DNA of 36,348 bases from a virus. The first letter of the stretch is position 1, and each line of letters starts with the position of its first letter. Of this stretch, positions 1-36,348 are shown in pieces. The stretch spans positions 1-36,348 of IMG/VR virus record IMGVR_UViG_3300009551_000036; one strand, given 5' to 3'. The notes under the pieces are model-generated. The model searched no databases. It saw only the letters and a list, made by a program, of their open reading frames with translations, and was not told the origin of the DNA. The translations under genes were made by a program, and so were the position numbers.

Positions 1-123
1 TGTGTCCCGTTATAAATATTCGTTGCTGCTGCTGCTCCCACTAATATATATCCACTCGGGATTTTATTCAAAGTGTGTGGGAATCCTTGATTGGCATTGG
101 CTGCGTGAAATTGTGCTGAAACA
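1..123. repeat. Terminal direct repeat, left copy (identical to 36226..36348); most likely the assembly overlap of a circular or circularly permuted genome
   Basis: Read base by base: tgtgtcccgttataaatattcg...gtgctgaaaca occurs at both window ends (123/123). A minus-strand ORF is continuous across the implied junction. Confidence 0.9.
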
Positions 124-2987: not shown

Positions 2988-5213
2988 TCACGGCGAGACT
3001 GCTACCGCCTCCCTTTTCATGGATTCAAAATCAACGGGAATCTGTTCCATCTCAGTGAGCCAACTTTCGGCAACTTTCTCCCAAGAAAGCGACTGAGGCT
3101 TAAAGCTCTGAAACGCTTCCCGTTCCCATCGTTTTTCACGTAAAGCTTGAAGGGTCGCGTTTGTAAAATTGCGAAACTCATCGCTTGTGACGCAATCGTG
3201 ATTGAGAAGCGTTGCCATGCCTGACTTTTCGGCTAGAGCCAAGGTGTCCTTAAGTCCACCCAAACGTCGGGTCACTGGATAGACTCCTGAGGCAATCATT
3301 TCCATTGCCGTAATGCAGCTCGTTTCGATGAAATCGCAGGGATGAAGCCAAATGACGGCTTCTTTAAAATGCCTGATCAGCTCATTCTGCTCCGTTTTGC
3401 CGTGGTATTTGACCCAGGGTCTGGAAGCAAACATCCCTTTCAATTTGTCATGGAGCGCCTGATGCCCCCACTGAGGGAGATGTTCGATGCCGTAAAAGAC
3501 ATGGAGCTCAAGATCAGGGAATTCTTTCCTGACCTCATCACAGACCAAAATAGCTCGATCGAGTCCGCGATCAGGACTAGAGGGAAATACGATCTTATTT
3601 GGGTTTTTAGCGGGCTTAGGCCCCAGGAACCTGTCGGGGTGAATTCCGTTTCTTGAAATCCAGATTTTGTCATAAGGAACGAGTTGCATGTTATGCATGA
3701 AATCCGCGTGAAACGGAGTCAGACAAATCGCCTTCACATAATTGGAAGTCTCCTCAATGCCAGGGGTGATTAAATCATGGCACCAAGCATAAGTGGGAGC
3801 ATCGGTCAGTTTCACGTTGTGGCGCCAAGAGATATGCAGATAGGGCTTATATTGAGAGAAGTAATGCTGAATCTGAGCCACAGGTAAGTACTCCACCCCG
3901 CGGATCGTTTTAATGTCAGCTCTCGCATTGAAGACTTTGACTTTTCTGCCTGAGAGTTTGGCCAGGTGTTCTGCCATTTCAATACAAGCGGTCTCAGACC
4001 CCCCCATTCCTTGCTTTCGGTACTCTTCTCCATCCCAGACATAAGGAGAGGTCGGAGTGCCTGAGAAGACAATCTCGCGAGTGGGCTTGGCCGCTTTCCT
4101 TCCACACATCAATGTGCTCATCTTCGTCAATTCATCTAAGATCTGCTTGGTCTCAGGATGCTTGTATTCGCCATGACACCGAAAGGCCACTTCCTTAGCC
4201 TCATCGATTTTCCCGAGATTGGCATAGATCCTAGCCAGCTGATTTTTGGGATAAACGCCATACGCATCATCATGAAAGAAAATAGGAGAGACGACTTGAT
4301 TGCCCGCCGGCAAATAGCATTTGCATGCGGCTTGATAAAACGGAACGGCATTCAAAAACTGGTTCATTTTCAGATAACAATCGCCCACGGCCACATAAAG
4401 CTCAGCTCGCTGAGGTGCGAGTTGAATAGCAGTCAGTGCAATTGAAATGGCTTTGTCATACTGACCAAACTCCATGTAAGAGAGAGTCAAATACTGCATG
4501 GCCAAAATCCGGTCATGCATCTCCATTTCTTCTCCACTTGAGGTGACCTCTTCTAGCTTCCGGATCGCATCAAAGCGTTTGCCTGCTTCAAAGAGTTCTT
4601 TGCCCCAATAGTATTTCATCCGGGCATCCAGTTTCGATTGATTCTTCTCAAGGAGACTGAGATTTCTGCTTCGGTCTTTGGCAAGGTCCATCTCGGTTCT
4701 CATATGCCTCACTCGCCAAGAGGGAATGAAATTGACCTTGGTATCAGGACCAGGAACAATGCCTTCATGAACGAAGTATTTCCATTTCAGGTTCTTTGAT
4801 CGCTTCGTCACTCTTTCTCTGACAAAAGTACAAGCCGGAGTCCCATCAGGTTTTGAGGCGTAGACATAATTGGCTAACCAGAAATCAGCCAGATGCATGA
4901 TATCGTTTCGCCAAGATAGAAACTCGTCTCTGCCTTCTAAGATATCATCTCCGTCCATCCAGAAGATATAATCGGTCTTTAAAGGCTCATAGCTGACATT
5001 TCTGGCAGCTGCAAAATCATTGCACCAAGTGAACTCATAGACCTCAGCTCCGAGTTTAGCTGCGATTTCCTTGGTATCATCGGTTGATCCGGTATCGGTA
5101 ATACAAATTTGGTCAAAACATCCTTGAATCGATTCAAAAACGCGTGGCAGATTTTCAGCCTCGTTTTTGACAATCATAGCAAGTCCAAGAGTGGGTCTAA
5201 GGTGTTGAGTCAT
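2988..5213 (-). CDS. Three-part glycosyltransferase: N-terminal GT2-like domain, central TPR repeats, C-terminal GT4/GT1-like domain (741 aa)
   Basis: N-terminus LAMIVKNEAENLPRVFESI..ICITDTGSTDDT...WMDGDDIL gives GT-A nucleotide-binding and DxD-type motifs. The middle has repeated helical-hairpin motifs (YYWGKELFEAGKRFDAIRKL; GQYDKAISIALTAIQLAP; LYVAVGDCYLKMNQF; LARIYANLGKIDEAKE). The C-terminus has GMGGSETACIEMAEHL typical of GT-B enzymes. Confidence 0.7.
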   Translation of the reverse strand: MTQHLRPTLGLAMIVKNEAENLPRVFESIQGCFDQICITDTGSTDDTKEIAAKLGAEVYEFTWCNDFAAARNVSYEPLKTDYIFWMDGDDILEGRDEFLSWRNDIMHLADFWLANYVYASKPDGTPACTFVRERVTKRSKNLKWKYFVHEGIVPGPDTKVNFIPSWRVRHMRTEMDLAKDRSRNLSLLEKNQSKLDARMKYYWGKELFEAGKRFDAIRKLEEVTSSGEEMEMHDRILAMQYLTLSYMEFGQYDKAISIALTAIQLAPQRAELYVAVGDCYLKMNQFLNAVPFYQAACKCYLPAGNQVVSPIFFHDDAYGVYPKNQLARIYANLGKIDEAKEVAFRCHGEYKHPETKQILDELTKMSTLMCGRKAAKPTREIVFSGTPTSPYVWDGEEYRKQGMGGSETACIEMAEHLAKLSGRKVKVFNARADIKTIRGVEYLPVAQIQHYFSQYKPYLHISWRHNVKLTDAPTYAWCHDLITPGIEETSNYVKAICLTPFHADFMHNMQLVPYDKIWISRNGIHPDRFLGPKPAKNPNKIVFPSSPDRGLDRAILVCDEVRKEFPDLELHVFYGIEHLPQWGHQALHDKLKGMFASRPWVKYHGKTEQNELIRHFKEAVIWLHPCDFIETSCITAMEMIASGVYPVTRRLGGLKDTLALAEKSGMATLLNHDCVTSDEFRNFTNATLQALREKRWEREAFQSFKPQSLSWEKVAESWLTEMEQIPVDFESMKREAVAVSP

Positions 5214-9243: not shown

Positions 9244-11221
9244 TTATGGGCTAATGTAGTTTTGCAAACAAGCGGAGGCTGATGGCTTTTCCAAAAACAG
9301 ATTGGCAAAAAGCCTGAGACGCGCTTCGAATGCGTCACTTCCAATTTGGGCGATCAGGTAACTGCCCGTTTCGTCCGCCCATTCCATCTCGGCGAGTACG
9401 TATTTTTTCAGGTTCCCTTCTGTAATAAAGAAGAACCGTGTAGGGCAGGATTGATCCGCTAGAATCGGAGCACCTGAGAAGTTGAGGTAAACCTCATCCT
9501 TACTCGTGAATGTTCCGTCTCCAGTGACCTTTTCACCGATGTATCTGCGATCAGCGACCAATACAGTCTTGTTATCGCCTTGGCTTTTTATCCTAGGCTT
9601 CTTAGGCTTCTTTTTTCACCTAAGCTCAGCGTACATTTTCAGTCTTTTGAACTGTCGACCACTCTTGGGGGCATTGTTGGTTTCATCCCTCAGCCCCTAC
9701 GCGTTACGCAGCTAACGAAATTTCTTCGTCAGTTTGCTCGGGATTGGCATCGCAGCGTCCCCCGATTTTGGTCAATTTTGAATCGCCCATTTTGGTTAAG
9801 CGATTGTAATATCTCTCAGAATCGAAATCGCAATAAACGACAGAAATCTTCCCACCGCCTCGCCGTCTAGCATTATTCAATGCTTGTTGCATGGCGTTTA
9901 GATTCAGCTGTTGACCTGCTAAATCAATATTGTTTCCTTGGAAACTTGGAAAGAGGCTCCTGTCAATATTATAGATAGAACTGGTGCCGCCGTCCAAGCT
10001 CGTCAAGAGGCCCTGGATTTCGTTGCTCACTGTTCCAGACCGAATGACAAGATTGTTGGCTGCCACACTCACATTATTATCCAATGTCAGAGTAACCGTC
10101 GCTGTTCCAATTCCGCTCATAGCTGTAATCTGAACGTTATTGGCCAACACGTTGTTATTGGTGTCGACGATATCGATCTGAGTTCCGATATCGAGAAACT
10201 TCTCAGGGGCTTCAGCTGAAGCAATCCCTGCTTGGGTATCCCGATTCTGAATCGAAATGGAGTTCGTTCCGACAGCATTAGCAGAAACGGTCGCGAGACG
10301 GCCATTGCCGTTCCACCCCAACTGACGATTCACGTCCCATTTGGAATCGTTCACATTCTGTTACCCCTAGCCTTTCGGCTAGTGGAGGAACCGCTTCGGA
10401 TTCCTCTCAACGGCTTCTTTGGTTATACCGTTGTTCAGACTATCGCATCCCTTTCGGGCCCTCTCACTTAGTCGTTCAGGCTGCTTTCGCTTGCCCCTTG
10501 TCACCCGCTTCCGGGCTTCCAAGTCAATCAGAGTGGGTTTTAGAGGGACTGTAAGTACTTGAAATACTTGAGTTAATCCCTCAGTCATTTCAAATTCCAT
10601 CGCTGTAACAAATGCGCCCTTATCACCCTGGGAGCTTTTGATCAGCGGGCCTGTGAGACCGAACAAACGATCACAGTTTTGAAATGACTTCTGCGCTTCG
10701 GTCATGCAGCACGCAGATAATTATACTTCGCAGCAATAATGGCTTGCTGAGTGGTCTGTTGACCGATTTTGGGTAGGTTTCCGCCATCACTGGTAGCTCC
10801 GATACCCTGGTTACGTCTTACCTTCACAGGTCGAATGACTTGTTGACCGTTCCACTTCTCTTTTCCCTTTTCAGCTCCCCTATAGAGCGGTAGCAAGTTT
10901 GTTATCGTCCAGGTTTTTTATCCCAGACTTCTCACCATTTTATTTCAGTGAGTTCAGCGTACATTTTCAACCATTTCTGGTTGCCGGGGACTCTTGGGAG
11001 AGTTTATGTCTCCTACGCGTTACGGACGGATCAATCCTTGATCTCGCCCTCGGTATTCCCGTCTCAGGGTCCACCGATACACCCCAGTTTTTCATTTTCT
11101 ACTTACGTAGAAAAGCGACCATTTTTACATAATCGTCATTGAATTGGGAAACGATTGGACCGGCATAGTAGTTCTTCAGAATCGCCAGGGCGTTTGCCAC
11201 GTTGGCGAATTGATTAGCCAT
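9244..11221 (-). CDS. Major capsid protein (HK97-fold-like), interrupted. Proposed coding segments, complement: 11221..11132, 10893..10711, 10669..10576, 10353..9799, 9563..9244. Mature product about 410 aa.
   Basis: GGAGG RBS then ATG at 11221 (MANQFANVANALAILKNYYAGPIVSQFNDD). Later pieces read LPLYRGAEKGKEKWNGQQVIRPVKVRRNQGIGATSDGGNLPKIGQQTTQQAIIAAKYNYLR / LFGLTGPLIKSSQGDKGAFVTAMEFEMTEG / (L)NDSKWDVNRQLGWNGNGRLATV...SERYYNR / LLVADRRYIGEKV...LQNYISP*. Together these match the recalled pattern of this capsid family (..Y.YGRI.v.GP.I.....GAF..A.E.E......NRq..GdG.G.LA.v). The gene follows the scaffold gene. Confidence 0.8.
9564..9798 (-). ncRNA. Group I-like intron 3 in the capsid gene (235 nt, no ORF), paralogue of intron 1
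   Basis: P1: exon AAUCGCU | UAACCAAAAUG GGCGAUU gives 7 bp with U.G at the splice site. It ends ...CGAUAACAAGACUG | UAUUGG. It shares these blocks with intron 1: cctacgcgttacg (9696-9708 vs 11012-11024), tcagcgtacattttca (9626-9641 vs 10954-10969), actcttggg (9661-9669 vs 10990-10998), ttgttatcg and tttttatcc. Splicing gives ...YYNR-L-LVADRRY in frame. Confidence 0.7.
10354..10575 (-). ncRNA. Group I intron 2 in the capsid gene (222 nt, no genuine ORF)
   Basis: P1: exon GAGGGAU (10582-10576) pairs with GUCCCUC (10549-10543), with U.G at the splice site. R-like UGAACGACUAAG and S-like GCGAUAGUCUGAAC give P7 GACUA (10473-10469) / UAGUC (10442-10438). P4/P5 is CUUG-GAA-GCCCG-GAAG-CGGGU-GA-CAAG. 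GAAA tetraloops occur at CCC-GAAA-GGG, GC-GAAA-GC and CUAGCC-GAAA-GGCUAG (10382-10367). It ends ...GGUAACAGAAUG | UGAAC. Length is divisible by 3 and joins GGA U|UG AAC in frame. Confidence 0.75.
10894..11131 (-). ncRNA. Group I-like intron 1 in the capsid gene (about 238 nt, no ORF)
   Basis: 5' exon ...GACGAU | UAUGUAAAAAUG GUCG gives a 4-bp P1 with a U.G pair at the splice site. It ends ...CGAUAACAAACUUG (terminal G) | CUACCG. A UUUUCUAC-GUAA-GUAGAAAA tetraloop hairpin is present. P7 candidate is GCGUA (in GUAACGCGUAGG) with UACGC (in AUGUACGCUGA). An alternative 5' splice site lies 3 nt downstream (after UAU). Confidence 0.65.
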
Positions 11222-12611: not shown

Positions 12612-15155
12612 TCATCGTCTCCTTGGGGGTAATCCCACCGGTCGCGGCGGCGACCCTCGTCCCTGCTTAGGCGGTCCTACGGGCGCAGGGCCCGGAGCTG
12701 GTGCTCCAGCTCCAAACTGTGCTTTTTTGGCCGCCATTCGGTCGTTGGCACCTGGGGGTAATCCGGCAATGGCTTCTCCACCTGCTCCAATGGGCGGTGG
12801 AGGCATTGGGGGAAGCGGAGGCATCGGAGTATTGGAAGGGCCTGGAGGCATGAGCTGATTGAGCCTGTCTTCCATCTGAGCTTCAAAAAGACGCCTAATT
12901 TCCTCAGGCAGCATTCCCCATTTATCGGATTTTCTGAATCGATTGAGCTCTTGGCACCAAAGGATGTTGTTATCCTTCTTATCGATCTCGACGAATTCGC
13001 CTTTTTCCAATGCGTCCATGCCTCGTTTGATTTGAGCCATGTCGATGTGTTGGTCTTCAAAGATTTCCTGACTCTGTCCAAATTCCAAAGCATCCAAGAT
13101 CTTCATTGCAACCGATGGATCGGATTTGGGGTCACCGAGAAGTCCCAGACTCATGGTATTGACGATGTCCTGGCGCTTGAGAGTCTTTGAATCAGGGAGA
13201 GTGGATCCTCTCACGACTCTCACATCCGTATTGCCTCTCAAAAGCCTGCCATCGAGTTCCCGGATAATGTATTCGCCTGATTTGCCGGCAAGTTTCATTT
13301 TGCGGGGCATTTCGTAATTCTTCTCCACCTGTTTTAGGATCTGACGAAACACTTTGGACCAAGATCGCTCTAAGAGTTCAGTGATGACGCTTAATCGAGT
13401 CTGATCTTGCTCCTGGAGAAGCTGAGCGCCAATAGCGGGTATAGAAGCAGAAGGCAGAATGCCGCGAGAAACGTCGCCGATCCCAAAAATATAATCCATA
13501 ATTTTGTCGAGACGCTCTTCTTCAGTGTAAGCGTATTCTGGGATGGTGGGGACGGGTAAGGGTTCGATGTTTTGAGGGGCTGAGGGCACGACATTGTAAT
13601 AAAGCACTTCTCCTGATTCATCATTCATGGCCTCTTGGGCAAGGCCGGAACCTCTCGGGGCTTTGTATTTGCCCGCAAGCATTCGTCTTGTCCATTCAGC
13701 CCTTCGTCTTAAAGTTTCATTATATTGATCCTGAATCGGTCTTGCATGAGTGACCGGAGTCTCACTGTAATATTTGCCGCCTATGATGGTATCATCAAAT
13801 TTGGTGAGCGGGATTTCTCCGATAGGCAAATCTTTGCTATCTAAGAACACACCATTCGCTGCAGCAATCATCCGTCCTTGAGGAAATTTGGCTGAAGGCT
13901 TTTCATACTTAATCATTTCAATCGCAGAATTTTTCATCTGCTCAGTCAACCCCCCTTGCGAAGGGCCGCGAGAATTGAGCGAATTGACCCGCATTTCATA
14001 CTGAGCAGAAAGAAGCCACGCTGCTTCTTCTTTCACTAAATGTCCTCGTTCTGGATAATTGGCCTGAAAGTAATGAAGCGGTCTGACTTTAGCCAGCATC
14101 AAATATTGAGCATCATCATCGGTTCTAGCAAAAGGATCTGGAAAGACCGAAAACGCCGATTCAACTTCAATATCGACATCTCCTTGATAACCCAACGTCC
14201 CATCTTCCAGGATCATCGGATCGCCTAGTAATGGGTTCCATTTCACATGAATATAGGAATGCCCACATTGCTGCATCCACATGTAAAGAAACAGGCGCTT
14301 CTTATTGACTTCCAATCTTTCGATTTGAGTGTTTAAGACCTGCATCGAAAGTTTCGCTGCATCCTTATCCTCAACATCATCTGTTTCTGGAACAATGTCG
14401 TATTCGGGTGGATTCTGACAAAGACGCGCTAATCGATTTTGAACCGTAGGTAAGATCTTATTGGCATGAATGCGGTTTCGTCTCAAGTAGGCACTGGCGC
14501 GATTGATGGGCTGAAACTGGCGCGCAGTCGTATTATACATCAGGCCGTCGTAGCCTAGGCAGTTATGGACTAAGATCCCATTGGCGAAATATTCATGGAT
14601 TGTCTCAATGGTTAGGTCAAAGACATGTTGTGGACCTACACATAAGCGCTTCACAAAACAAACGTCTTCATTCTTTTCTGAGATGACATGCATCCCGACT
14701 TGCAGATTTTGGGCTTGGACCCAGCCATAAGCTTTGGTGTAAATCTTATGCTCATCGGTGCATTTCAGAATCGATCCATCTGAGAAATAATGGTCATAAC
14801 AGGTCTTTGTGCCATTATCCCAGACTCGAAGAACACGCCGATACCCATCGCGTGTTTTAACAAGATCTTTCGTTGTGAGTTTCTCGATTGCGGTATAGCC
14901 ATTGGCCGTCGCAATGACTGAATCGCCTGAGACGCAATAGGCGCAGTTCGTCATCCAGATTCCCTCATGTGCAATTCGATTCGCACTCGAGCGATTGGAT
15001 TCCAGCTCAGCTCTTAATTTCTGAGCCATGTCGATTTCTTCAGAGGATTGATCACTGACGCTTTTGGGCTTTTTATTGCGATCTGGGTCCGTCTGCGACG
15101 ACTGGGCCGCAAAGGGCTGATTCCCCCCAAATAATGATTTCAATAAACCCGCCAT
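12612..15155 (-). CDS. Portal protein precursor (847 aa) containing a mini-intein and a Pro-rich basic C-terminal tail
   Basis: Largest head-module ORF, downstream of the terminase pieces. RBS AAGGA. The mature protein would be about 722 aa after intein removal. The portal assignment rests on size and position. Confidence 0.65.
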   Translation of the reverse strand: MAGLLKSLFGGNQPFAAQSSQTDPDRNKKPKSVSDQSSEEIDMAQKLRAELESNRSSANRIAHEGIWMTNCAYCVSGDSVIATANGYTAIEKLTTKDLVKTRDGYRRVLRVWDNGTKTCYDHYFSDGSILKCTDEHKIYTKAYGWVQAQNLQVGMHVISEKNEDVCFVKRLCVGPQHVFDLTIETIHEYFANGILVHNCLGYDGLMYNTTARQFQPINRASAYLRRNRIHANKILPTVQNRLARLCQNPPEYDIVPETDDVEDKDAAKLSMQVLNTQIERLEVNKKRLFLYMWMQQCGHSYIHVKWNPLLGDPMILEDGTLGYQGDVDIEVESAFSVFPDPFARTDDDAQYLMLAKVRPLHYFQANYPERGHLVKEEAAWLLSAQYEMRVNSLNSRGPSQGGLTEQMKNSAIEMIKYEKPSAKFPQGRMIAAANGVFLDSKDLPIGEIPLTKFDDTIIGGKYYSETPVTHARPIQDQYNETLRRRAEWTRRMLAGKYKAPRGSGLAQEAMNDESGEVLYYNVVPSAPQNIEPLPVPTIPEYAYTEEERLDKIMDYIFGIGDVSRGILPSASIPAIGAQLLQEQDQTRLSVITELLERSWSKVFRQILKQVEKNYEMPRKMKLAGKSGEYIIRELDGRLLRGNTDVRVVRGSTLPDSKTLKRQDIVNTMSLGLLGDPKSDPSVAMKILDALEFGQSQEIFEDQHIDMAQIKRGMDALEKGEFVEIDKKDNNILWCQELNRFRKSDKWGMLPEEIRRLFEAQMEDRLNQLMPPGPSNTPMPPLPPMPPPPIGAGGEAIAGLPPGANDRMAAKKAQFGAGAPAPGPAPVGPPKQGRGSPPRPVGLPPRRR
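14562..14936 (-). mobile_element. Mini-intein (125 aa, residues 74-198 of the portal ORF, +1 Cys at residue 199), no endonuclease domain
   Basis: Block A CVSGDSVIATANG. Block B ILKCTDEHKIY (TxxH). Block F VFDLTIETIHEYFANG. Block G ILVHN followed by C. Codons checked on the sequence: tgc at 14936-14934, aac at 14564-14562, tgc at 14561-14559. Confidence 0.8.
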
Positions 15156-15173
15156 TCCTTGGCATCCTTTACG

Positions 15174-15419
15174 TTAAGGAATCCCAGCAAACTCTTGCAG
15201 AGGACCCAGATCTTCTTCCAAGGCCTGCTCATGTCTAACGCCCTGGTTTAATTCCCCGTCTGTCATGGTCTTATCGACATTCTTGGCAAACATATAATCG
15301 TGATAATTCTTCGACATGACTTTGTTAATCAACTTCTGAGTGGTCACGATAAACATGACTTGCTGAATAAAAGTATAAAGCACGAATCCCAGAATGATAA
15401 AGTCTTTAGCGTCTGCCAT
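15174..15419 (-). CDS. Small membrane-anchored hypothetical protein (81 aa)
   Basis: N-terminal hydrophobic helix FIILGFVLYTFIQQVMFIV. Sits in the operon series just upstream of the portal gene. Confidence 0.45.
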   Translation of the reverse strand: MADAKDFIILGFVLYTFIQQVMFIVTTQKLINKVMSKNYHDYMFAKNVDKTMTDGELNQGVRHEQALEEDLGPLQEFAGIP

Positions 15420-15738
15420 TGTTTTTACTCGGAACTTTGGCTGTGTTAGTCCCCTGAATCACCTTGGCTTCATCATCCCCATAAAGAATTTGACCCAAAG
15501 GACGCTCTAATTCCTCTTTTAAGCGCTGAGATTTGCCAAATTCAGTCACTTTGACGGATTGGAAGATAAAGTATTCGGCATGGGGACCTAATCCCCCTTT
15601 ATTGAAATGATCGATGATTTCCTTGGAAGTTTCGATCCATTCCTGTCCTTCAATCGTTGCGCGGTGAATCTTGGAATAAAATTGGTTGAGAGTTTCTTCA
15701 GTCTCATTCAGACCAAGCTTCACGCCCTGAGCTTCCAT
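15406..15738 (-). CDS. Hypothetical protein (about 110 aa from the internal ATG; the ORF is open from 15846)
   Basis: The ORF overlaps the 3' end of the terminase nuclease gene. The start was chosen at MEAQGVKL to minimise that overlap. Confidence 0.4.
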   Translation of the reverse strand: MEAQGVKLGLNETEETLNQFYSKIHRATIEGQEWIETSKEIIDHFNKGGLGPHAEYFIFQSVKVTEFGKSQRLKEELERPLGQILYGDDEAKVIQGTNTAKVPSKNNGRR

Positions 15739-16516
15739 TTTGTGAGCTTTCGGTGAGGTGTTGGATATACCAGGACTCGTATTTGGGGTCGTTTGGACTG
15801 TGGGGTTGCTCAAGCTTCTTTTTCTCCCTTGTTGGATAATAAACAAGTTCCTCTAAACTGGCCAATGCGTCAAGGATATCATCGTGAGTTCCGCGGGGGA
15901 ACGCGTCATATTCATCCTCGAATTCAACCATTCCAGGGTAACAGAATAAATGTCCCCACTCGAATCTGGGGACTAGGCCTAAGATTCGAGAGGATTTAGA
16001 GATATTGTTTCTCCTAATGCCTTTTACGGGAAGCATTTTGTCGCGCTTGATCATTTCTTCTGAAATGAGATATAAAAGCGCCTCTTGATAACCCACGATT
16101 TCAATCCCGATGGCATCGAGTTCAAACTGCTCTTGAAGATCAAAGGCTTTATTAACAATCTGTGTCGGAGTCAGGCGATAGCGTGAAGCGAGTCTTAAAT
16201 ACCAATTCCGATCCTGATCAGCATAGACGACGGCGATGCCGGTATAGTCACTGTGCTTATGCTGGCCAATGGCTGGATCAATGAAAGCAAACTTAGTGCA
16301 TCCTTCTGGGATTTGAGTGGTGTATCTCAGCCATTCTTTTCTAAACTTCTTTTCCTCATCGGGGATGATGACGTTTAAATATTGGTTGGCAAAGAGATAA
16401 GACCCCATGGTCCGTCTGGCTTGATCTAAGAACTCTTGGGTCAGTCTTTCAGGAAAGAAAAGAGATCCATCGTCATTGATGGCCTTTTTATAGACGACGC
16501 TCCAGCGGTCGTTCAA
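15704..16516 (-). CDS. terL: Large terminase, C-terminal nuclease-domain fragment (270 aa, TTG start)
   Basis: RWSVVYKKAINDDGSLFFPERL..LFANQYLNVIIPDEE..FAFIDPAIG..YTGIAVVY..GIEIVGYQ..HDDILDALASL are RNase-H-like nuclease motifs of TerL. GGGAG lies 7 nt upstream of a TTG that overlaps the TGA of the upstream ORF. Confidence 0.85.
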   Translation of the reverse strand: MNDRWSVVYKKAINDDGSLFFPERLTQEFLDQARRTMGSYLFANQYLNVIIPDEEKKFRKEWLRYTTQIPEGCTKFAFIDPAIGQHKHSDYTGIAVVYADQDRNWYLRLASRYRLTPTQIVNKAFDLQEQFELDAIGIEIVGYQEALLYLISEEMIKRDKMLPVKGIRRNNISKSSRILGLVPRFEWGHLFCYPGMVEFEDEYDAFPRGTHDDILDALASLEELVYYPTREKKKLEQPHSPNDPKYESWYIQHLTESSQNGSSGREAWSE

Positions 16517-16881
16517 TACCCAGCTCCCTTATCGATTCTCATAGCAATAATCGATGTGGTGCCTAAGGAGGAAATATAAAACGAAGCAGGTCCTTCGATT
16601 TCAAAAATCTCAGGAATCATGGTCGCTCCGACGGGATGTAAGGGCCAACCTTTTCCGGAGAGAGCTGCTAGCGTTGCCCCTGCCATCGTGGTTCCAAAGA
16701 AAAAGTTCAGGTTACTACTCCCAATAGCAGGAGGGAGGATCTCACAAGAGGAACCGAGGAGTGCTTTCATCGCCCAGGTCTGTTGCCCTAAAAGAGGCTG
16801 ACAGAAAACAGCCAGAGTAGGGCCGACTGGAACGATGACTTGAGTGATGCCTAGAGTAAAGATGCTATCTGCGAGATTCAT
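16513..16881 (-). CDS. Hypothetical protein (122 aa), paralogue of 17349..17705
   Basis: Aligns with the 118-aa ORF: LG.T.VIVP.G.TLAVF.QP..GQ.......G..CEIL.PA........F.GTTMAG.TLAALSG.G. Lies between the two terL fragments. Confidence 0.6.
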   Translation of the reverse strand: MNLADSIFTLGITQVIVPVGPTLAVFCQPLLGQQTWAMKALLGSSCEILPPAIGSSNLNFFFGTTMAGATLAALSGKGWPLHPVGATMIPEIFEIEGPASFYISSLGTTSIIAMRIDKGAGY

Positions 16882-17346
16882 TTAGTTTCCTAATCGAAAG
16901 ATTGAAAAATAAATTTGTGACGCGTTTCCAGACTGCAAAGACGGGCTCCCAGCATTACACGAACCTTTGATTACTACATTATCCCCATCCGCTAATTGAA
17001 GAATATCACCGACAGGACAAAATTGGGCTGTCATACTGGTTGCAAGTCGATTGATTGTTTGACTTGTCGCTACTCCATTCACATAGATTGAATTCTGAAC
17101 GACATTATTGACCGCCGCAGCATTGAAGGAATAGACCAGCTGGGAATGGAGATGATACTTTCCTCCTAAGCCGGATCCCACAACCCAGACGCCATTACTC
17201 ATGCTCATTCCGCCGACGGTGTCAAAGCTCTTATTGATCCAAACAATCGGCGCGTCACCACCACCGATTGAGCTATTTGAATCAGTAAATCGACCTGCAA
17301 CAAGTGGATTATAAAAAGGCACTGTGGAGAAAATCTCTAATGCCAT
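16882..17346 (-). CDS. C1q/TNF-like jelly-roll domain protein (154 aa)
   Basis: IVWINKSFDTVGG..NGVWVV..GGKYHLHSQLVYS...IYVNGV......LQLADGDNVVIKG.....IYFSIFRLG matches the recalled C1q-domain pattern (F..v..N.G....G.F....G.Y.f.....v.L..NG....l.L..GD.V.....FsGfLl). Confidence 0.5.
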   Translation of the reverse strand: MALEIFSTVPFYNPLVAGRFTDSNSSIGGGDAPIVWINKSFDTVGGMSMSNGVWVVGSGLGGKYHLHSQLVYSFNAAAVNNVVQNSIYVNGVATSQTINRLATSMTAQFCPVGDILQLADGDNVVIKGSCNAGSPSLQSGNASQIYFSIFRLGN

Positions 17347-17348
17347 GT

Positions 17349-17705
17349 CTATTGACCCTCAGCCTTTCCAAAGATCGCATGCAGGACCGATGTAGCCCCT
17401 GTGGATGAGAGGTAGTAATACGCAGGTCCGCTCAGGGATAAGGTCTCATTGGTGGATAGGCAATAGCCTGAACCAGACAAGGCAGCTAAGGTTCCCCCTG
17501 CCATAGTCGTTCCTAAGAATATGTTAAATGCGACCTGAGTAAAAGCGGGACCCAGGATTTCACAAGTCCCACCTGAGAACATTTTGAGCAGAGTGCTCAC
17601 CTGTCCTGCTTGAGGTTGCATGAAGACAGCAAGTGTGGCTCCGATTGGAACAATGACGCGCGTTGCCCCTAAACTCCACACCGAATCAAATGAGGTAGTC
17701 GCCAT
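17349..17705 (-). CDS. Hypothetical protein (118 aa), paralogue of 16513..16881
   Basis: See the paralogue alignment above. Same strand, and the pair flanks the C1q-like gene. Confidence 0.6.
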   Translation of the reverse strand: MATTSFDSVWSLGATRVIVPIGATLAVFMQPQAGQVSTLLKMFSGGTCEILGPAFTQVAFNIFLGTTMAGGTLAALSGSGYCLSTNETLSLSGPAYYYLSSTGATSVLHAIFGKAEGQ

Positions 17706-17755
17706 GATAGAAGTTTAGGTGTCTCCACCCGGTTAATCAAGGTTTGTTCGTGAAC

Positions 17756-17926
17756 TTACTCCTGACCATCATGCTTGATATCCATCAAGTATTCTCGATC
17801 CAAGGTTTGGATCATATGGCGAATGGTATCGGCAACCTCAGGCTTTCCAGAAGCCTCCATCTCTTTCATAAACTCATGCAGGTTCCAAACTAAGTCTAGA
17901 ATCCTCTTATGGGTAACTGACATCAT
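17756..17926 (-). CDS. Small hypothetical protein (56 aa), below the ORF-track cutoff
   Basis: RBS AAGGAG (17938-17933), then ATGATG. Hand translation: MMSVTHKRILDLVWNLHEFMKEMEASGKPEVADTIRHMIQTLDREYLMDIKHDGQE*. Confidence 0.5.
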   Translation of the reverse strand: MMSVTHKRILDLVWNLHEFMKEMEASGKPEVADTIRHMIQTLDREYLMDIKHDGQE

Positions 17927-17946
17927 AATGAACTCCTTACCTTAGT

Positions 17947-17976
17947 ATTATACTCTAATATAACGCATTAAGTCAA
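17947..17976 (-). promoter_or_regulatory. Sigma70-type promoter inside the terL-splitting region
   Basis: Minus-strand TTGACT (17976-17971), 18-nt spacer, TATAAT (17952-17947), followed by the RBS and ATG of the 56-aa ORF. Confidence 0.5.
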
Positions 17977-17987
17977 GCCAGGGTGTG

Positions 17988-18215
17988 TCAGGGATGATCC
18001 TTTTCTAGATCATCGACCTTCTCGCGTTCAGCTAAGGCGATATTGAGATGATGGATCAGCATGGCGACATCTTGGCTGAAGTACTTGCTTTGGAGCAGGC
18101 TCAGGAAATACTTCACTTGCTCATCGGGGCCTGTAAAGAGATCACGAAGCAAAGCCTTAGCGTTTGCTCGGGTGGTTGTCATCCAGTCATGCCGTCGTTG
18201 GGGATTGATCATCAA
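17988..18215 (-). CDS. Hypothetical small protein (75 aa)
   Basis: ORF with a 4-nt overlap onto the upstream 69-aa ORF. Confidence 0.45.
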   Translation of the reverse strand: MMINPQRRHDWMTTTRANAKALLRDLFTGPDEQVKYFLSLLQSKYFSQDVAMLIHHLNIALAEREKVDDLEKDHP

Positions 18216-18421
18216 TGCCTCGTGAATTTATCCCAGTCAGAAATGGCTTCAGTGACATTAATCACCCCGAGCTTAATCATAGAGGCTTTGTCGCAGAGCT
18301 TATCGATATTCGTTTCGTTTAAGACTTCAGCTTTAGCCGCTAAGTCAGTCTCAGCCGTGATCTTGGCAGTCCCATAGATTTCAAGCTTATAGACCACATG
18401 CCATTTCTTTTTCATTGTCAC
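18212..18421 (-). CDS. Hypothetical small protein (69 aa)
   Basis: ORF beginning ATGACAATGAAAAAG. Its start codon is 17 nt from the divergent plus-strand ORF. Confidence 0.45.
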   Translation of the reverse strand: MTMKKKWHVVYKLEIYGTAKITAETDLAAKAEVLNETNIDKLCDKASMIKLGVINVTEAISDWDKFTRH

Positions 18422-18438
18422 TATTGTACAGGAAAGCC

Positions 18439-18714
18439 ATGGCTTTTAGATTTTTGCAGCATTTACCGGCTTATTTTGATGACAGCATTGCCCGTTTTGA
18501 CATCACCGTGGAAAATACCGAAGAATTGCTTCGCTATCCCAAAATTGATGGATGGAAAAGAAATCATCAGGATTTCTATCGTTTCGTGCAGTCAAAGTAT
18601 GGCGATAATTTGCACCTTATGGCCGAGCATAACAATGGCAAGAGTTGGTATGTCTTAGGAACCGCTTTTACCGAGGACCTAGGTTTGCCTCAATGGGAAC
18701 CTAAGAAGGATTAA
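18439..18714 (+). CDS. Hypothetical protein (91 aa from ATG 18439)
   Basis: AGGAAA lies upstream of ATGGCTTTT. Plus-strand ORF embedded in a minus-strand operon, between the terL halves. Confidence 0.45.
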   Translation: MAFRFLQHLPAYFDDSIARFDITVENTEELLRYPKIDGWKRNHQDFYRFVQSKYGDNLHLMAEHNNGKSWYVLGTAFTEDLGLPQWEPKKD

Positions 18715-18717
18715 GAA

Positions 18718-18993
18718 ATGCTGAGACTAAAACAGAAGCTAGCCCATGATTATTGCGTAGATCTTGTCCCTGAAGTTTTACCAAAAGATAATAAAGATTG
18801 GTATGAGGCAACTCTAGCATGCGACGTTTTAAGGGCTCAATATGCTGCAATTTATTTGGCTGGATTCGAAAAAGCACGAGAGTTGGTCTGGGAGACTTTA
18901 GGAGAGGAAATGTATTCCGTCCAACCCAAGATACAACATCTTATCCTGAATGTGGGGGAGGGAGAAGTGGATCTATCAGTCCCTGAGGCTTAA
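18718..18993 (+). CDS. Hypothetical protein (91 aa); its 3' end overlaps the 3' end of the terL ATPase fragment by 53 nt (convergent)
   Basis: RBS AAGGA lies 6 nt upstream of the ATG, which is 3 nt after the previous stop. Confidence 0.45.
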   Translation: MLRLKQKLAHDYCVDLVPEVLPKDNKDWYEATLACDVLRAQYAAIYLAGFEKARELVWETLGEEMYSVQPKIQHLILNVGEGEVDLSVPEA

Positions 18994-19672
18994 TCTCATT
19001 CTCTAAAATATATCCCAGACAATCGTCTGCGGCATAACGCGTCCCGATAACGACCATCACTCCATGGGGCTCTAGAATCGACGTATTAAGCTTATAGTGA
19101 TTCACGACCTTCTGTCTTTGCTCAGGAGTCTGGGAGTTTCGTTCAGAGTTTAAATCATCCATAATAATGCAATCATAGTGCTGTCCAGTCTTGCCGGCCC
19201 CGACACCTGAAGCCGTCACACTCGATTCCTTCAAGATCTTTCGCCTCTGAGCAATCGTAATACTTCCCTCAGCCCATTGGTTGGATCTAAAGGACCCAAA
19301 GAGTTGGGTCACTCGGGGAAGCTCAAGCTTGCCCCTGATCTCGCGGATGAAGTTCTTAGAATTCTCATAGATCTCTGAATCAATCAGGATCCTCAGATTC
19401 GGATTATTCATCAATGACCAAATGGAATACCCGACTACTCCTATCGATGATTTAAACGTGCCCCGAGGGACGCAGATGAGCTTGCGTTTGGTTGGAGCTT
19501 CTAAGGCTTCGATGATTTCGCCATGCGTATATTTAGTCAGATCGGAATATTCCAATAGATCTTTGCAGGTGAGATAGAGGCTATTCTTATAACGCGTTTT
19601 GATGCGTTCAGTTAAAGCGATGCGTTGGATTTGAGGGTCATACTTACCGAGTTGTTTGGAATAAGTGGCCAT
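18941..19672 (-). CDS. terL: Large terminase, N-terminal ATPase-domain fragment (243 aa)
   Basis: Walker A-like VPRGTFKSS. Walker [11 protein letters not shown]. Coupling motif [11 protein letters not shown]. It ends ...[26 protein letters not shown], exactly where homologues continue into the ..W.v...A...dG..lfPe.. segment found at the start of 15704..16516. Confidence 0.85.
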
Positions 19673-19687
19673 GCTTATAATACGACT

Positions 19688-19945
19688 ATGCCACTTGAAA
19701 AAGGAAAGTCACCCAAGACCATGTCAGATAACGTAGCGGAACTCGTTAAGGCGGGACATCCGGTGAACCAAGCAGCGGCGATTGCCTATAATGAAGCTGG
19801 CAAATACCGGAAAAAGCCAGCTGAGGAAGAATTGAACACCGCCAGAAGCGCGATGAACCGAGTTTCACATAATGGCAGTCCTATGGAAAAAGCGAGGGTG
19901 AGTGCTGCGGTTGAGAAGAAATACCAGAAGCTCAAGAAGTCTTAA
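19688..19945 (+). CDS. Small conserved-looking phage protein (85 aa from ATG 19688)
   Basis: [43 protein letters not shown] resembles a recurrent small phage protein motif (K.G.p.kQAvAIAy), from recollection. TATAAT (19676-19681) lies 6 nt upstream of the ATG, so the mRNA may be leaderless. Confidence 0.5.
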
Positions 19946-26510: not shown

Positions 26511-27119
26511 TTATTTCACTAAAGCCGCATTCACATTACGGGCTTTCTTATGAGCCATATCCTCTAATTCCTTTTCCAGTAATTTGCATTGCTGATCCGT
26601 TAGTTCTGAAAGCTGATTGACCTGATAGCGCTTAGGAAGAATCTCTTTATCCAGATAAATTCTAGCAATTCCTGCAGAGGATAAGAGCTTATCTAAATTT
26701 GGAATGATTTTATCAGACGCTTCTTTTCCACGACCCATAGCTCCCTCGCCATCATCCTCAGCGGGAGCGATACCGACGATTGCAGATAAAGCATAGCGCC
26801 TCATGTAGGTGATTGCGCTTCCTAAGGCTTGCGGAGTGGTCTTTTCATTCATCGGAATCGGCAATTGACTCATGACCCACTCCCCACTGGTATGCATGAG
26901 AATGGTGAGGAGAAGCAATCCTTCTGGAGTTCCCTGGATCGGTTGAGTGACTGAAAGACCATTCTTACTTAAGGGTCCACGGCAGGCATCCCAACAAGAG
27001 GCTAAATCGGCATAGCTGGATTTGAAATAAGGATTCTCCTTATCCTTGTGAGCATGCATCATCTCGCCCTGAGCTTTAGAAAGCGCATCAGCTAGCTTTG
27101 CAATTGAGTCAGACTTCAT
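26511..27119 (-). CDS. erf: ERF-family single-strand annealing recombinase (202 aa)
   Basis: IAKLADALSKAQGEMMHAHKDKENPYFKSSYADLASCWDACRGPLSKNGLSVTQ and ..QALGSAITYMRRYALSAIVGI match the hallmark Erf N-terminal domain. Confidence 0.8.
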   Translation of the reverse strand: MKSDSIAKLADALSKAQGEMMHAHKDKENPYFKSSYADLASCWDACRGPLSKNGLSVTQPIQGTPEGLLLLTILMHTSGEWVMSQLPIPMNEKTTPQALGSAITYMRRYALSAIVGIAPAEDDGEGAMGRGKEASDKIIPNLDKLLSSAGIARIYLDKEILPKRYQVNQLSELTDQQCKLLEKELEDMAHKKARNVNAALVK

Positions 27120-27709: not shown

Positions 27710-28486
27710 TTGAGTGAACCTGTCGTTTCCGTCATTCTGACTCATCAGCTAGAAGAAAATCTACCTTATCTGCAATTAGCCTTAGATAGCGTTCTTCTAA
27801 GTCAGGGAATTGAATTTGAGGTCTTTTTAGTTTCAGGACAAAAGGACAAGCCTCCTGCAATTGAGCATCAATCCAAAAATCTTCAGATCATTTGGGACCC
27901 ACAACTGGATATAGCAACAAAGAAAATAAACTATGCCCTATCCAAAATCTCCACACATTCCACGCATCTGATGCTGCTATCGGATGATGTGATCTTATCC
28001 TGGAATTCCCTCTCTCGGATGTACAATGCATTCTTAGGTCGAGAACTCATCATAGGTCCGATGAGTAATTCAGATTTCAATTCAAGATACGAAGCATCGA
28101 TTGAATTGCAATTTCCAAAAATATACCTCCGTCCCGATATGTCGCTTCAAGATTTGAAGCTCAACCACCTGGATGACTTACTCAACGTCAAACTTTTCGA
28201 TGATTCCTTAGGCAGGCTTCTCATCCCATTCCCGTGGATTTCATTTTATTGTGTCATGATGCCCAAATCCGTCTGGCAAAAAGTGGGTGGACTCGATGAG
28301 AAATTAGAATACCGCTACAACGACCAAGATTTTTGTACTCGGGCTCAGCAACTTGGAATTCCAACGGTTGTGAATTTCGCAGCTTTTGCGTTTCATTTCG
28401 GATCAAGAACGATGAAGCATTTAAAGACTCCTCAGATTGACCAGGCGGCGACAGAGCATTTTATGAAGAAGTGGAGTTTGAGATGA
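27710..28486 (+). CDS. GT2-family glycosyltransferase (258 aa, TTG start)
   Basis: VSVILTHQLEENLPYLQLALDSV (GT-A N-terminus). LMLLSDDVIL (DxD-like). Late motif GGLDEKLEYRYNDQDFCTRAQQLG. Confidence 0.6.
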   Translation: MSEPVVSVILTHQLEENLPYLQLALDSVLLSQGIEFEVFLVSGQKDKPPAIEHQSKNLQIIWDPQLDIATKKINYALSKISTHSTHLMLLSDDVILSWNSLSRMYNAFLGRELIIGPMSNSDFNSRYEASIELQFPKIYLRPDMSLQDLKLNHLDDLLNVKLFDDSLGRLLIPFPWISFYCVMMPKSVWQKVGGLDEKLEYRYNDQDFCTRAQQLGIPTVVNFAAFAFHFGSRTMKHLKTPQIDQAATEHFMKKWSLR

Positions 28487-30556: not shown

Positions 30557-31489
30557 ATGGAAAAAGACGCCAGAATCTTTGTCGCAGGGAGTACCGGATT
30601 AGTCGGTCGCGCTTTAGTCAGAAAACTAAAAGGCCAAGGCTACAGCTCAATTATCACCCGAAGCCGAGAAGGCTTAAATCTATTAGATCCCAGGGCCGTG
30701 GATGACTTTTTCTGTCGGCATTATATCGATTACGTCTTTATGGCCGCAGGCAAAGTAGGCGGCATCATGGCTAATTCCATGAGCCCCGCAGACTTTCTTT
30801 ATGAAAATGCCATGATGGCTTGCAATGTTATTTACACGGCAGATAAATATAATGTCAAAAAGCTTCTTTATCTCGGATCCTCCTGCATTTATCCTAGAGA
30901 TTGCAAACAACCGATTGAAGAGAATGACTTACTCTCAGGTCCCTTAGAGAAGACGAACGAAGGCTATGCGATTGCAAAGATTGCGGGATTAAAACTGTGT
31001 GAAGCGTATGCGAAACAAAAAGGACGTCGCTTTATTTCTTGTATGCCTTGCAATCTGTACGGTCCTCATGACAATTTTGATCTGGCTACTTCACATGTTA
31101 TCCCTGCATTAATCCATCGATTTCATATCGCAAAAAAGACCAAACAGGATTCAGTGACTCTTTGGGGAACTGGACAAGCCAAACGGGAATTCCTTCATGT
31201 CGATGACGCAGCTGAAGGCATGATTCTTCTCATGGATCACTATGAGGGACTTCAGACGGTCAATTTAGGCTCAGGACGAGAGGAAAGCATTGGATCACTC
31301 GCTTTTAAAGTGAAAGAGGCTACCGGGTATTCAGGGGGCATCGACTATGATCGATCCAAGCCTGATGGCACGCCCAGAAAGATTATGACCTCAGATAAGA
31401 TGAGAAGCTTGGGGTTTCAACCTAAGATCAGTCTTCAAGAGGGACTGAATCAGACTTATCGATGGGCAATTGAGAATGAGGCTATTTAG
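30557..31489 (+). CDS. fcl: GDP-L-fucose synthase (GDP-4-keto-6-deoxymannose 3,5-epimerase/4-reductase)
   Basis: Collinear with E. coli Fcl: IFVAGSTGLVG..LNLLD.RAV.DFF....IDYVF.AA.KVGGI.AN...PADF.Y.N.M......I..A....V.KLL.LGSSCIYP....QP..E..LL.G.LE.TNE.YAIAKIAG.KLCE.Y......R.....P.NLYGPHDNF....SHVIPAL..RFH...WG.G...REFLHVDD.A...SKPDGTPRK. Confidence 0.9.
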   Translation: MEKDARIFVAGSTGLVGRALVRKLKGQGYSSIITRSREGLNLLDPRAVDDFFCRHYIDYVFMAAGKVGGIMANSMSPADFLYENAMMACNVIYTADKYNVKKLLYLGSSCIYPRDCKQPIEENDLLSGPLEKTNEGYAIAKIAGLKLCEAYAKQKGRRFISCMPCNLYGPHDNFDLATSHVIPALIHRFHIAKKTKQDSVTLWGTGQAKREFLHVDDAAEGMILLMDHYEGLQTVNLGSGREESIGSLAFKVKEATGYSGGIDYDRSKPDGTPRKIMTSDKMRSLGFQPKISLQEGLNQTYRWAIENEAI

Positions 31490-36155: not shown

Positions 36156-36348
36156 TCAAAAAACCAAAACACTGGCTGATGTCGCCACAGTCGATTGCAG
36201 ATAAATGGTATTGACGGTATTCGCCTGTGTCCCGTTATAAATATTCGTTGCTGCTGCTGCTCCCACTAATATATATCCACTCGGGATTTTATTCAAAGTG
36301 TGTGGGAATCCTTGATTGGCATTGGCTGCGTGAAATTGTGCTGAAACA
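36156..36348 (-). CDS. 3' part of the junction-spanning 112-codon ORF (same gene as 1..269)
   Basis: Same frame after removing the 123-nt overlap (36225 is divisible by 3). TGA at 36158-36156 lies just upstream of the RBS (GAGGAGGG) and ATG of the 210-aa gene. Confidence 0.7.
   Translation of the reverse strand, partial: VSAQFHAANANQGFPHTLNKIPSGYILVGAAAATNIYNGTQANTVNTIYLQSTVATSASVLVF
36226..36348. repeat. Terminal direct repeat, right copy (identical to 1..123)
   Basis: Exact 123-nt identity with the window start. Unit length is 36225 bp. Confidence 0.9.

Follow-up and report, generated by a model that had tools for sequence, protein, structure and literature searches.

Two separate genes for the large terminase

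A hallmark of tailed phages is the gene for the large terminase subunit (TerL), whose product is regarded as one polypeptide with two domains. The virus record IMGVR_UViG_3300009551_000036, whose 36,348 nucleotides (nt) form the window analysed here, carries its terL as two separate open reading frames (ORFs), termed terL-N and terL-C, with other genes between them. The ends of the window (1-123 and 36226-36348) are an exact 123-bp direct repeat, and the assembly is therefore circularly closed, representing a complete genome of about 36,225 bp. Six intact TerL queries match only the terL-N and terL-C pieces in this window. An identical terL-N is found on three contigs, of which the one shown is an ENA assembly; JGI and Logan are listed as sources for a neighbouring gene product. 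The terL features, with lengths in amino acids (aa), are as follows:

18941..19672, minus strand: terL-N, 243 aa, N-terminal part of the large terminase with Walker A, Walker B and motif III (GTRY)
18944..18994, minus strand: C-terminal tail of terL-N, 17 clade-specific residues holding a recurrent G-L-I motif
15704..16516, minus strand: terL-C, 270 aa, TTG start, with the next ATPase strand (WSVVY), the lid helices and an RNase H-like nuclease

Both ORFs lie at the coordinates and on the strand given in a preliminary description of this DNA. The TerL profile phrog_38 is matched by terL-N over positions 294-465 (E 2.4e-34) and by terL-C over positions 466-713 (E 9.7e-47), the two matches abutting without gap or overlap. 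In the same way, residues 17-224 of the intact homologue P0046 align to 19615..18995, and its residues 226-470 to 16510..15794. The Terminase_6C domain is matched in terL-C at 22.3 bits, just below the curated 22.6. Walker A (PRG.[F]KS), Walker B (QHYD..I.DD) and GTRY are kept across an alignment of 53 distinct N halves, and none of the acidic residues of the nuclease (D80, E139 and D212/D213) varies among 26 C halves. The motif conservation bears out the earlier assignment of the three ATPase motifs to terL-N, and the abutment on phrog_38 together with the invariant acidic residues does the same for the claim that terL-C is precisely the next TerL segment and carries the nuclease motifs. Compared with a T7 gp19-like TerL, the additional-strand catalytic-glutamate (ASCE) ATPase motifs, the RNase H-like nuclease and the overall TerL fold are all present; the feature that fails is the placement of ATPase and nuclease on one polypeptide, as the two parts have separate stop and start codons.

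The gap from terL-N to terL-C measures 2424 nt. The sequence at the break is GAGAUUAAG, and the sequences on either side of the junction are ...ATTTTAGAGAATGAG for terL-N and ...CGCTGGAGCGTCGTC for terL-C, the N-terminus of terL-C being MNDRWSVVYKKAINDDGSLFFPERL. Past the ...ILENE helix, terL-N runs on for 17 tail residues and not for the "few residues" first reported. The TTG start of terL-C at 16516 does have its own ribosome-binding site, GGGAG/GGAG located 7-8 nt upstream, and it shares a TTGA overlap with the stop of the upstream 122-aa ORF; the GAGAU|UAAG sequence noted at the break is also present. The start of terL-N (19673-19690 upstream, minus strand) is without an obvious Shine-Dalgarno sequence and has a TATTAT hexamer 4 nt before the ATG. 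This start may be leaderless or otherwise unusual.

Position of the cut and predicted structure

In an alignment with 35 intact homologues, the latter read ...TRWDYxDVYQYILDNE-x-D-x-FN-ILVRKAYNxDGSLFFPERLT at the junction. Relative to them, the terL-N tail and the first residues of terL-C form an insertion of about 18 residues at a short loop. AlphaFold2 was run on a single-chain concatenation of terL-N and terL-C, giving a mean predicted local distance difference test score (pLDDT) of 85.8 and a predicted template-modelling score (pTM) of 0.76; at the junction, only the terL-N tail was disordered. The model contains the following elements:

Residues 218-230: helix, last ordered element of terL-N
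Residues 231-243: disordered terL-N tail, pLDDT <50
Residues 248-252: beta-strand WSVVY, start of terL-C
Residues 270-290: lid helices
From residue 317: nuclease

The top PDB match of the concatenated model in Foldseek was the T7-like TerL of PhiV-1 (8dgc_E, E 5e-25), followed by the TerLs of Sf6, HK97, D6E and T4. In the model the cut falls within the ATPase domain, past the helix that comes after motif III, and not at the boundary between ATPase and nuclease. The initial heading given to this locus, "separate ATPase and nuclease ORFs", is consequently inaccurate, since terL-C also holds the next ATPase strand and the lid. Judging from the known fold, the terL-C strand would complete the ASCE sheet.

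The tail of terL-N shows a recurrent feature of its own. Within their final 8 aa, 19 of the 53 N halves have a motif of the form G[LIVM][hydrophobic], against a background of 2.4% (an enrichment of about 15-fold), in versions such as GLI, GLL, GLIL and GVLL; the tail encoded in the window has PQGLI internally. It may be speculated that this G-L-I-type motif serves as a docking element.

Distribution of the split among related phages

A search of 5.8 billion proteins was performed with the concatenated TerL, and its best 120 matches were examined. Among them, 85 are stand-alone C halves of 272-337 aa with 49-77% identity. Every match at 49% identity or above is a stand-alone C half, and intact TerLs in that search reach at most 42%. 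Relatives were then drawn from six loci around stand-alone C halves and from 80 IMG/VR loci, in which the halves were located by tblastn. All related loci with both halves (59/59) are cut at the same residue, with the two parts on the same strand and the N half upstream of the C half. The N-half ORFs of these loci stop 0-40 residues after the ...ILENE[ILV] helix, and a conserved Trp stands close behind the opening of the C-half frame, within a few residues (1-8 in the scored loci).

Across the loci, the halves lie between 2 nt and 8.7 kb apart. At its shortest, the halves are practically contiguous: in L079 the junction reads GAT GTT TAATG CAG TGG, where the TAA stop overlaps the ATG start and a GAGGA Shine-Dalgarno sequence stands 6 nt upstream. 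The spacer in L064 is 81 nt long, and in L009, the closest IMG/VR relative (77%), a single 124-aa gene fills the whole gap. The start of terL-C overlaps the stop of the preceding ORF in 38 of 74 distinct loci, which suggests translational coupling and is counted in favour of a two-gene organisation.

In a neighbour-joining (NJ) tree of the C region, the 86 short forms are monophyletic and exclude 35 intact TerLs. The survey of relatives for an uninterrupted terL, which the preliminary description had called for, thus returned 59 split loci out of 59 and one distant fused form. This is P0140 (L090, 578-2104), which came from a subsequent exhaustive search among representatives at 50% identity. 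It is one ORF of 508 aa on a contig of 2.1 kb, and its halves are joined by the 15-residue linker LELREFPYGRYDKGE. With 47% identity, it is placed at the base of or inside the split clade and is the only fused form. Its sequence indicates that the two termini can sit adjacent, and it would be compatible both with the ancestral state and with a re-fusion. Another member of the split clade, P0139 (576 aa), is a stand-alone terL-C in which an intein-like insertion breaks up the nuclease motif (..HDDV|CFVADTL...LVSN|CDALAMM..).

Both halves are under constraint. The synonymous substitution rate (dS) is saturated for most pairs, and the usable comparisons are those between the proportions of nonsynonymous (pN) and synonymous (pS) differences, plus a few closest pairs. 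In every pair tested, pN is far below pS in both halves. For the window against L003, pN/pS amounts to 0.215/0.867 in the N half and 0.160/0.805 in the C half, and the closest pair, L073/L075, gives a nonsynonymous to synonymous rate ratio (dN/dS) of 0.033 and 0.056, respectively. This purifying selection on both halves therefore rules out a decaying pseudogene. Mean divergence is 0.483 among N halves and 0.486 among C halves, and the pairwise distances are correlated (Mantel r 0.61, p <= 0.001), which argues that terL-N and terL-C are inherited and constrained together.

Genes between the two halves

Clustering of the gap ORFs of 60 loci defined a family, fam0, whose members are 92-156 aa long (median 106) and occur in 47 of the 60 loci in one to three copies. 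They are always encoded on the terL strand and are found only between the terL halves. In the window, the gap contains two of them among the following features:

17977..18940, both strands: orphan segment, lineage-specific, about 1 kb
17988-18215 and 18212-18421, minus strand: ORFs of the orphan segment, mechanically listed
18048-18377, 18415-18714 and 18718-18993, plus strand: ORFs of the orphan segment, mechanically listed
17947..17976, minus strand: sigma-70-like promoter TTGACT-18-TATAAT, 11/12 matches, with AAGGAG and the ATG of the 56-aa ORF downstream
17756..17926, minus strand: 56-aa ORF, first downstream of the promoter-like site, with AAGGAG 7 nt ahead of its ATG
17349..17705, minus strand: fam0 copy 1, 118 aa, E 8e-30 with the fam0 hidden Markov model (HMM)
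16882..17346, minus strand: 154-aa ORF, sole homologue in L088 at 14857-15249, outside the terL gap of that locus
16513..16881, minus strand: fam0 copy 2, 122 aa, fam0 HMM E 6e-21, stop overlapping the terL-C start

The AlphaFold2 model of fam0 copy 1 (pLDDT 82) is all-beta, and its PDB matches, cupin/jelly-roll folds only at E >= 4e-3, are uninformative. The family has no Pfam or PHROG match, and Foldseek against PDB and BFVD returned only generic jelly-roll or uncharacterised phage proteins; from the model, fam0 is predicted to be a family of small jelly-roll proteins. The 154-aa ORF, likewise without a Pfam or PHROG match, probably encodes a putative fibre or receptor-binding accessory protein. 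No homologue of the 56-aa ORF was found in related loci. The ORFs of the orphan segment have no homologue in 88 related loci and no Pfam or PHROG match, and their reality is uncertain. Of the "seven or eight ORFs" originally counted between the halves, three are backed by homologues in relatives (17349-17705, 16882-17346 and 16513-16881) and the 56-aa ORF by good expression signals, whereas those within 17977-18940 are orphans that may not be genes.

The sigma70 promoter reported at 17947-17976 is real as a promoter-like site, with 11 of 12 positions matching; across the region, the overall number of promoter-like sites is no higher than in shuffled sequences. This site could start a transcript comprising fam0, the 154-aa ORF, the second fam0 and terL-C, separate from that of terL-N.

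A common module of the gap has a recognisable order: a protein of about 260 aa (belonging to two families), one or two fam0 genes, a large fibre or tailspike gene, small ORFs, and a membrane protein. The fibre or tailspike gene encodes 500-1600 aa, in one case with a K1-lyase_C domain, and the membrane protein is about 137 aa long, the stop of its gene overlapping the terL-C start. The best reading of these contents is that the gap acts as a cargo hot spot for variable accessory, fibre and tailspike genes.

Intervening sequences and signatures of splicing

Interrupted genes do occur elsewhere in this genome. The major capsid gene (9247-11221, minus strand) is divided into five exon-like pieces when compared with the intact 411-aa major capsid protein of L003. 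The intervening sequences are:

11131..10894, minus strand: sequence 1, 238 nt, homologous to sequence 4
10710..10664, minus strand: sequence 2, 47 nt
about 10570..10361, minus strand: sequence 3, about 205 nt
9796..9565, minus strand: sequence 4, 232 nt, homologous to sequence 1

These sequences have no Rfam match, a lax scan included, and none was found in 88 related loci. The interruptions are missing from the close relative L003, as mobile introns would be, and they look like unrecognised small self-splicing elements. In addition, the portal protein (12612-15155, minus strand) carries a mini-intein at residues about 74-198 (PT-HINT E 1.7e-10; Intein_splicing; CVSGDS...VHNC), which the 699-aa portal of L003 does not have.

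Nothing comparable was detected at terL. The Rfam scan of the whole window gave no relevant match, and a scan with lax filters over 16400-19100 gave only chance snoRNA-like matches. Neither the terL halves nor the gap ORFs gave a HINT or intein match with Pfam, which did detect the intein of the portal. The original observation that intein blocks and a group I core are lacking therefore agrees with the Pfam, Rfam and lax Rfam results. Neither Pfam nor PHROGs identified a homing endonuclease, recombinase or transposase among the gap ORFs. The family of capsid intervening sequences was also considered as a candidate for the terL break, either as a whole or through its "splice site"; it was rejected, as nhmmer detected it neither in the terL gap nor in the related loci.

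Gene fission and alternative explanations

The arrangement is most plausibly explained by an ancient gene fission that has given rise to a two-polypeptide TerL in a large uncultured phage clade whose genomes measure about 36-39 kb, a reading to which a probability of roughly 80% can be assigned. Under this explanation, terL would have been split in the ancestor of the clade, and the present phage would have inherited two independently translated genes. terL-N would supply most of the ASCE ATPase core, from Walker A and Walker B through motif III to the helix behind it, and terL-C would contribute the core beta-strand that comes next, along with the lid subdomain and the RNase H-like nuclease. 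No joining of the two polypeptides would take place at the DNA, RNA or protein level. Instead, they may associate non-covalently as complementing fragments, the terL-C strand filling in the ATPase sheet, and so build the packaging motor and its nuclease; they are possibly expressed from separate transcripts. The fission site would have become a neutral intergenic slot, filled by recombination with host-range and other cargo.

The firm ground of this explanation is the cut shared clade-wide, the separate stop and start codons, the selection acting on both halves and the lack of an intron or intein signature. Two of the marks of a stable gene fission are found here, each part having its own start and stop and both being inherited through a clade under purifying selection. 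The two-polypeptide TerL, one of three possibilities raised in the preliminary description, is supported by the same cut in 59 loci, by purifying selection and by those loci in which adjacent halves overlap at stop and start.

Several considerations weigh on the other side. The physical reassembly of the halves, together with their stoichiometry and transcription pattern, is something that we infer from sequence only. No cultured member of the clade was found in searches of GenBank phages and GTDB. The two genes can lie kilobases apart and possibly on different transcripts, which would make balanced expression non-trivial. Given that the weak NJ tree puts P0140 within the clade or at its base, one fission event is the parsimonious reading and not a proven one. 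Finally, the negative Rfam result is weak when taken alone, because Rfam also missed the evident intervening sequences of the capsid gene; the case against splicing rests on the comparative data.

A doubtful but conceivable extension of gene fission is that the split is not neutral. Avs-type STAND (signal transduction ATPases with numerous domains) NTPases are host immune receptors that bind TerL (see PDB 8DGC), and a divided TerL might present an altered view to such receptors. Alternatively, the split might allow motor assembly to be controlled at the level of transcripts, or fam0 might act as a third subunit or assembly factor.

It is unlikely that the halves are functionally independent, for example as a stand-alone nuclease-plus-lid and a separate ATPase acting at different steps. 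The genes can lie far apart and on different transcription units, as this explanation would allow, and motors of the phi29 type function without a nuclease domain. However, the cut strips a core beta-strand and the lid from the ATPase, and in view of the ASCE topology it is improbable that terL-N alone would fold or hydrolyse ATP. The correlated distances of N and C halves and the existence of the fused relative P0140 also speak against independence.

Very unlikely, too, is the recent insertion of a mobile cassette into an intact terL of this particular phage, either tolerated or leaving the phage defective. The gap content is indeed variable, and the segment 17977-18940 is unique to this genome, but the same-residue cut is found in 59 loci down to 44-50% identity, including relatives free of any cassette. 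No recombinase, transposase or homing endonuclease was found in the gap, and both halves are under purifying selection. What survives of the early proposal that a cassette was inserted and tolerated is that the cargo is variable and clearly exchanged; the split itself would go back to an older fission and not to the cargo.

Rejoining at the RNA level, through a very large or unrecognised cis-spliced intron or through trans-splicing, is highly improbable. This phage does possess intron-like sequences in its capsid gene that Rfam misses, and the terL break falls at GAGAU|UAAG. Nevertheless, the gaps measure anything from 2 nt to 8.7 kb and have unrelated contents, and their boundaries are coding and differ between loci. 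The gaps of L079, L009, L071, L027 and L035 consist of overlapping or tightly packed coding sequence with no room for a ribozyme, and the halves carry their own stop, or their own start with a Shine-Dalgarno sequence. Moreover, the capsid interruptions are sporadic, being absent in L003, whereas the terL cut is clade-wide, and the gap yields no copy of them with nhmmer and only chance matches in the lax Rfam scan. The suggestion that an unrecognised (trans-)splicing mechanism joins the halves, also made at the outset, is not supported by these variable, packed gaps, in which no Rfam match, capsid-element copy or intein feature was found.

Post-translational ligation by an atypical split intein has a precedent in a "fractured" terminase gene from metagenomes, documented with a short N part and a 122-aa C part (PMC2677866). 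The 17-aa tail of terL-N and the 122-aa all-beta ORF just upstream of terL-C superficially recall this arrangement, yet such a mechanism is extremely improbable here. The N-half tails vary from 0 to 40 aa, are unconserved and do not begin with Cys or Ser. terL-C opens 1-8 residues before the Trp, without a C-terminal intein part (IntC) and without His-Asn followed by Cys, Ser or Thr. Pfam, which finds the portal intein, finds nothing in the terL region. The 122-aa ORF (fam0 copy 2) was examined as an atypical IntC and rejected on frame, termini, fold and variable position: it lies in another frame and ends in ...KGAGY-stop, the fam0 model is a predicted jelly-roll with no HINT or intein match in PDB, and large fibre genes often stand between fam0 and terL-C.

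The sequence does come from a metagenomic assembly, but an assembly artefact with a contiguous terL elsewhere, or a decaying terL beside another complete terminase, can be given a negligible likelihood in view of the exact 123-bp closure, the six TerL queries that find only two pieces, the three contigs with an identical N half, the purifying selection and the same architecture in dozens of independent samples.

Significance and other genes of the phage

A split is surprising for an essential ring motor, and the functional statements made here are deduced from the sequence. If a two-polypeptide motor cut inside the ASCE core does exist, it would constitute a natural fragment-complementation system, offering a way to examine the part of the lid and the last core strand in coupling ATP hydrolysis to translocation and cleavage. 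In practical terms, half-size TerLs are scored wrongly or overlooked when phages are detected by marker genes, when completeness is estimated and in TerL phylogenies. The region between the halves is also a predictable swap site for fibre- and tailspike-like (putative host-range) genes. If splitting alters recognition by TerL-sensing defence systems, it might even amount to a new kind of immune evasion, although this is speculation.

The remainder of the genome encodes glycosyltransferase-like proteins and a nucleotide-sugar epimerase, recognised by PHROG matches at 2988-5213, 27710-28486 and 30557-31489. An Erf-like recombinase is located at 26511-27119.

Comparison with known systems

Single-chain TerLs, such as T7 gp19, that of PhiV-1 (8DGC), Sf6 gp2 and T4 gp17, have the same fold and motif order, and intact homologues align across the junction. 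They have only a short loop at this point, whereas here there are two genes and an added tail on the N half. Half-size TerLs with about the same boundaries are already catalogued in PHROGs as database clusters: terL-N matches positions 8-221 of phrog_4758 (243 positions) and terL-C positions 11-233 of phrog_5573 (250 positions), both annotated as "terminase large subunit".

A DNA search of GenBank phages gave no match, and protein searches of the same phages gave best matches of at most 34%; those whose annotation was opened are intact TerLs, with the exception of Podoviridae sp. ctLwi270. GTDB contributed only two close matches, both on short or phage-sized contigs of metagenome-assembled genomes, and no host or cultured system. 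A comparative review calls TerL universal (PMC7824862), and the literature found on split or two-gene TerL consists only of intron- and intein-based cases, with no description of a natural two-gene TerL.

Those cases include terL genes interrupted by introns or inteins in Jug jumbo phages (PMC12880540) and in cyanophage Mic1 (PMC7156551), and "fractured genes" with split inteins, a terminase among them, from metagenomes (PMC2677866). They likewise present separate terL ORFs, sometimes with genes in between. In contrast to the present locus, where no such traits were found and the cut is clade-wide, they are sporadic, are repaired by RNA or protein splicing, and carry ribozyme or HINT signatures and homing endonucleases.

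Phage ctLwi270 (MW202554) also has two coding sequences annotated as "terminase large subunit" with a small ORF between them. Its split, however, is located at the ATPase/nuclease linker, beyond the lid, an intein is present in the first part, and the proteins are only about 30% identical; this split is regarded as independent because of the different cut site and the low identity. Within the ctLwi270 locus (L002, 2929-5466), the ORF between the parts is 62 aa long, and the intein is of the LAGLIDADG type and sits in the lid motif (..PYQFA|CSRPD...SRN|CQQMNNP).

Outside the phages, the herpesvirus terminase gene pUL15 consists of two exons that flank UL16 and UL17 and are joined by the spliceosome to encode one polypeptide. 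Unrelated genes thus lie between the coding parts of a terminase ATPase in both cases; unlike here, the herpesvirus mRNA is spliced.

A further parallel is the split RNA polymerase beta/beta' of phiKZ-like jumbo phages (PMC7824862). The enzyme is a different one, and its assembly is experimentally supported, whereas reassembly of the TerL halves is proposed; there too, a conserved enzyme is divided among several polypeptides that reassemble, and the division is stably inherited within a clade.

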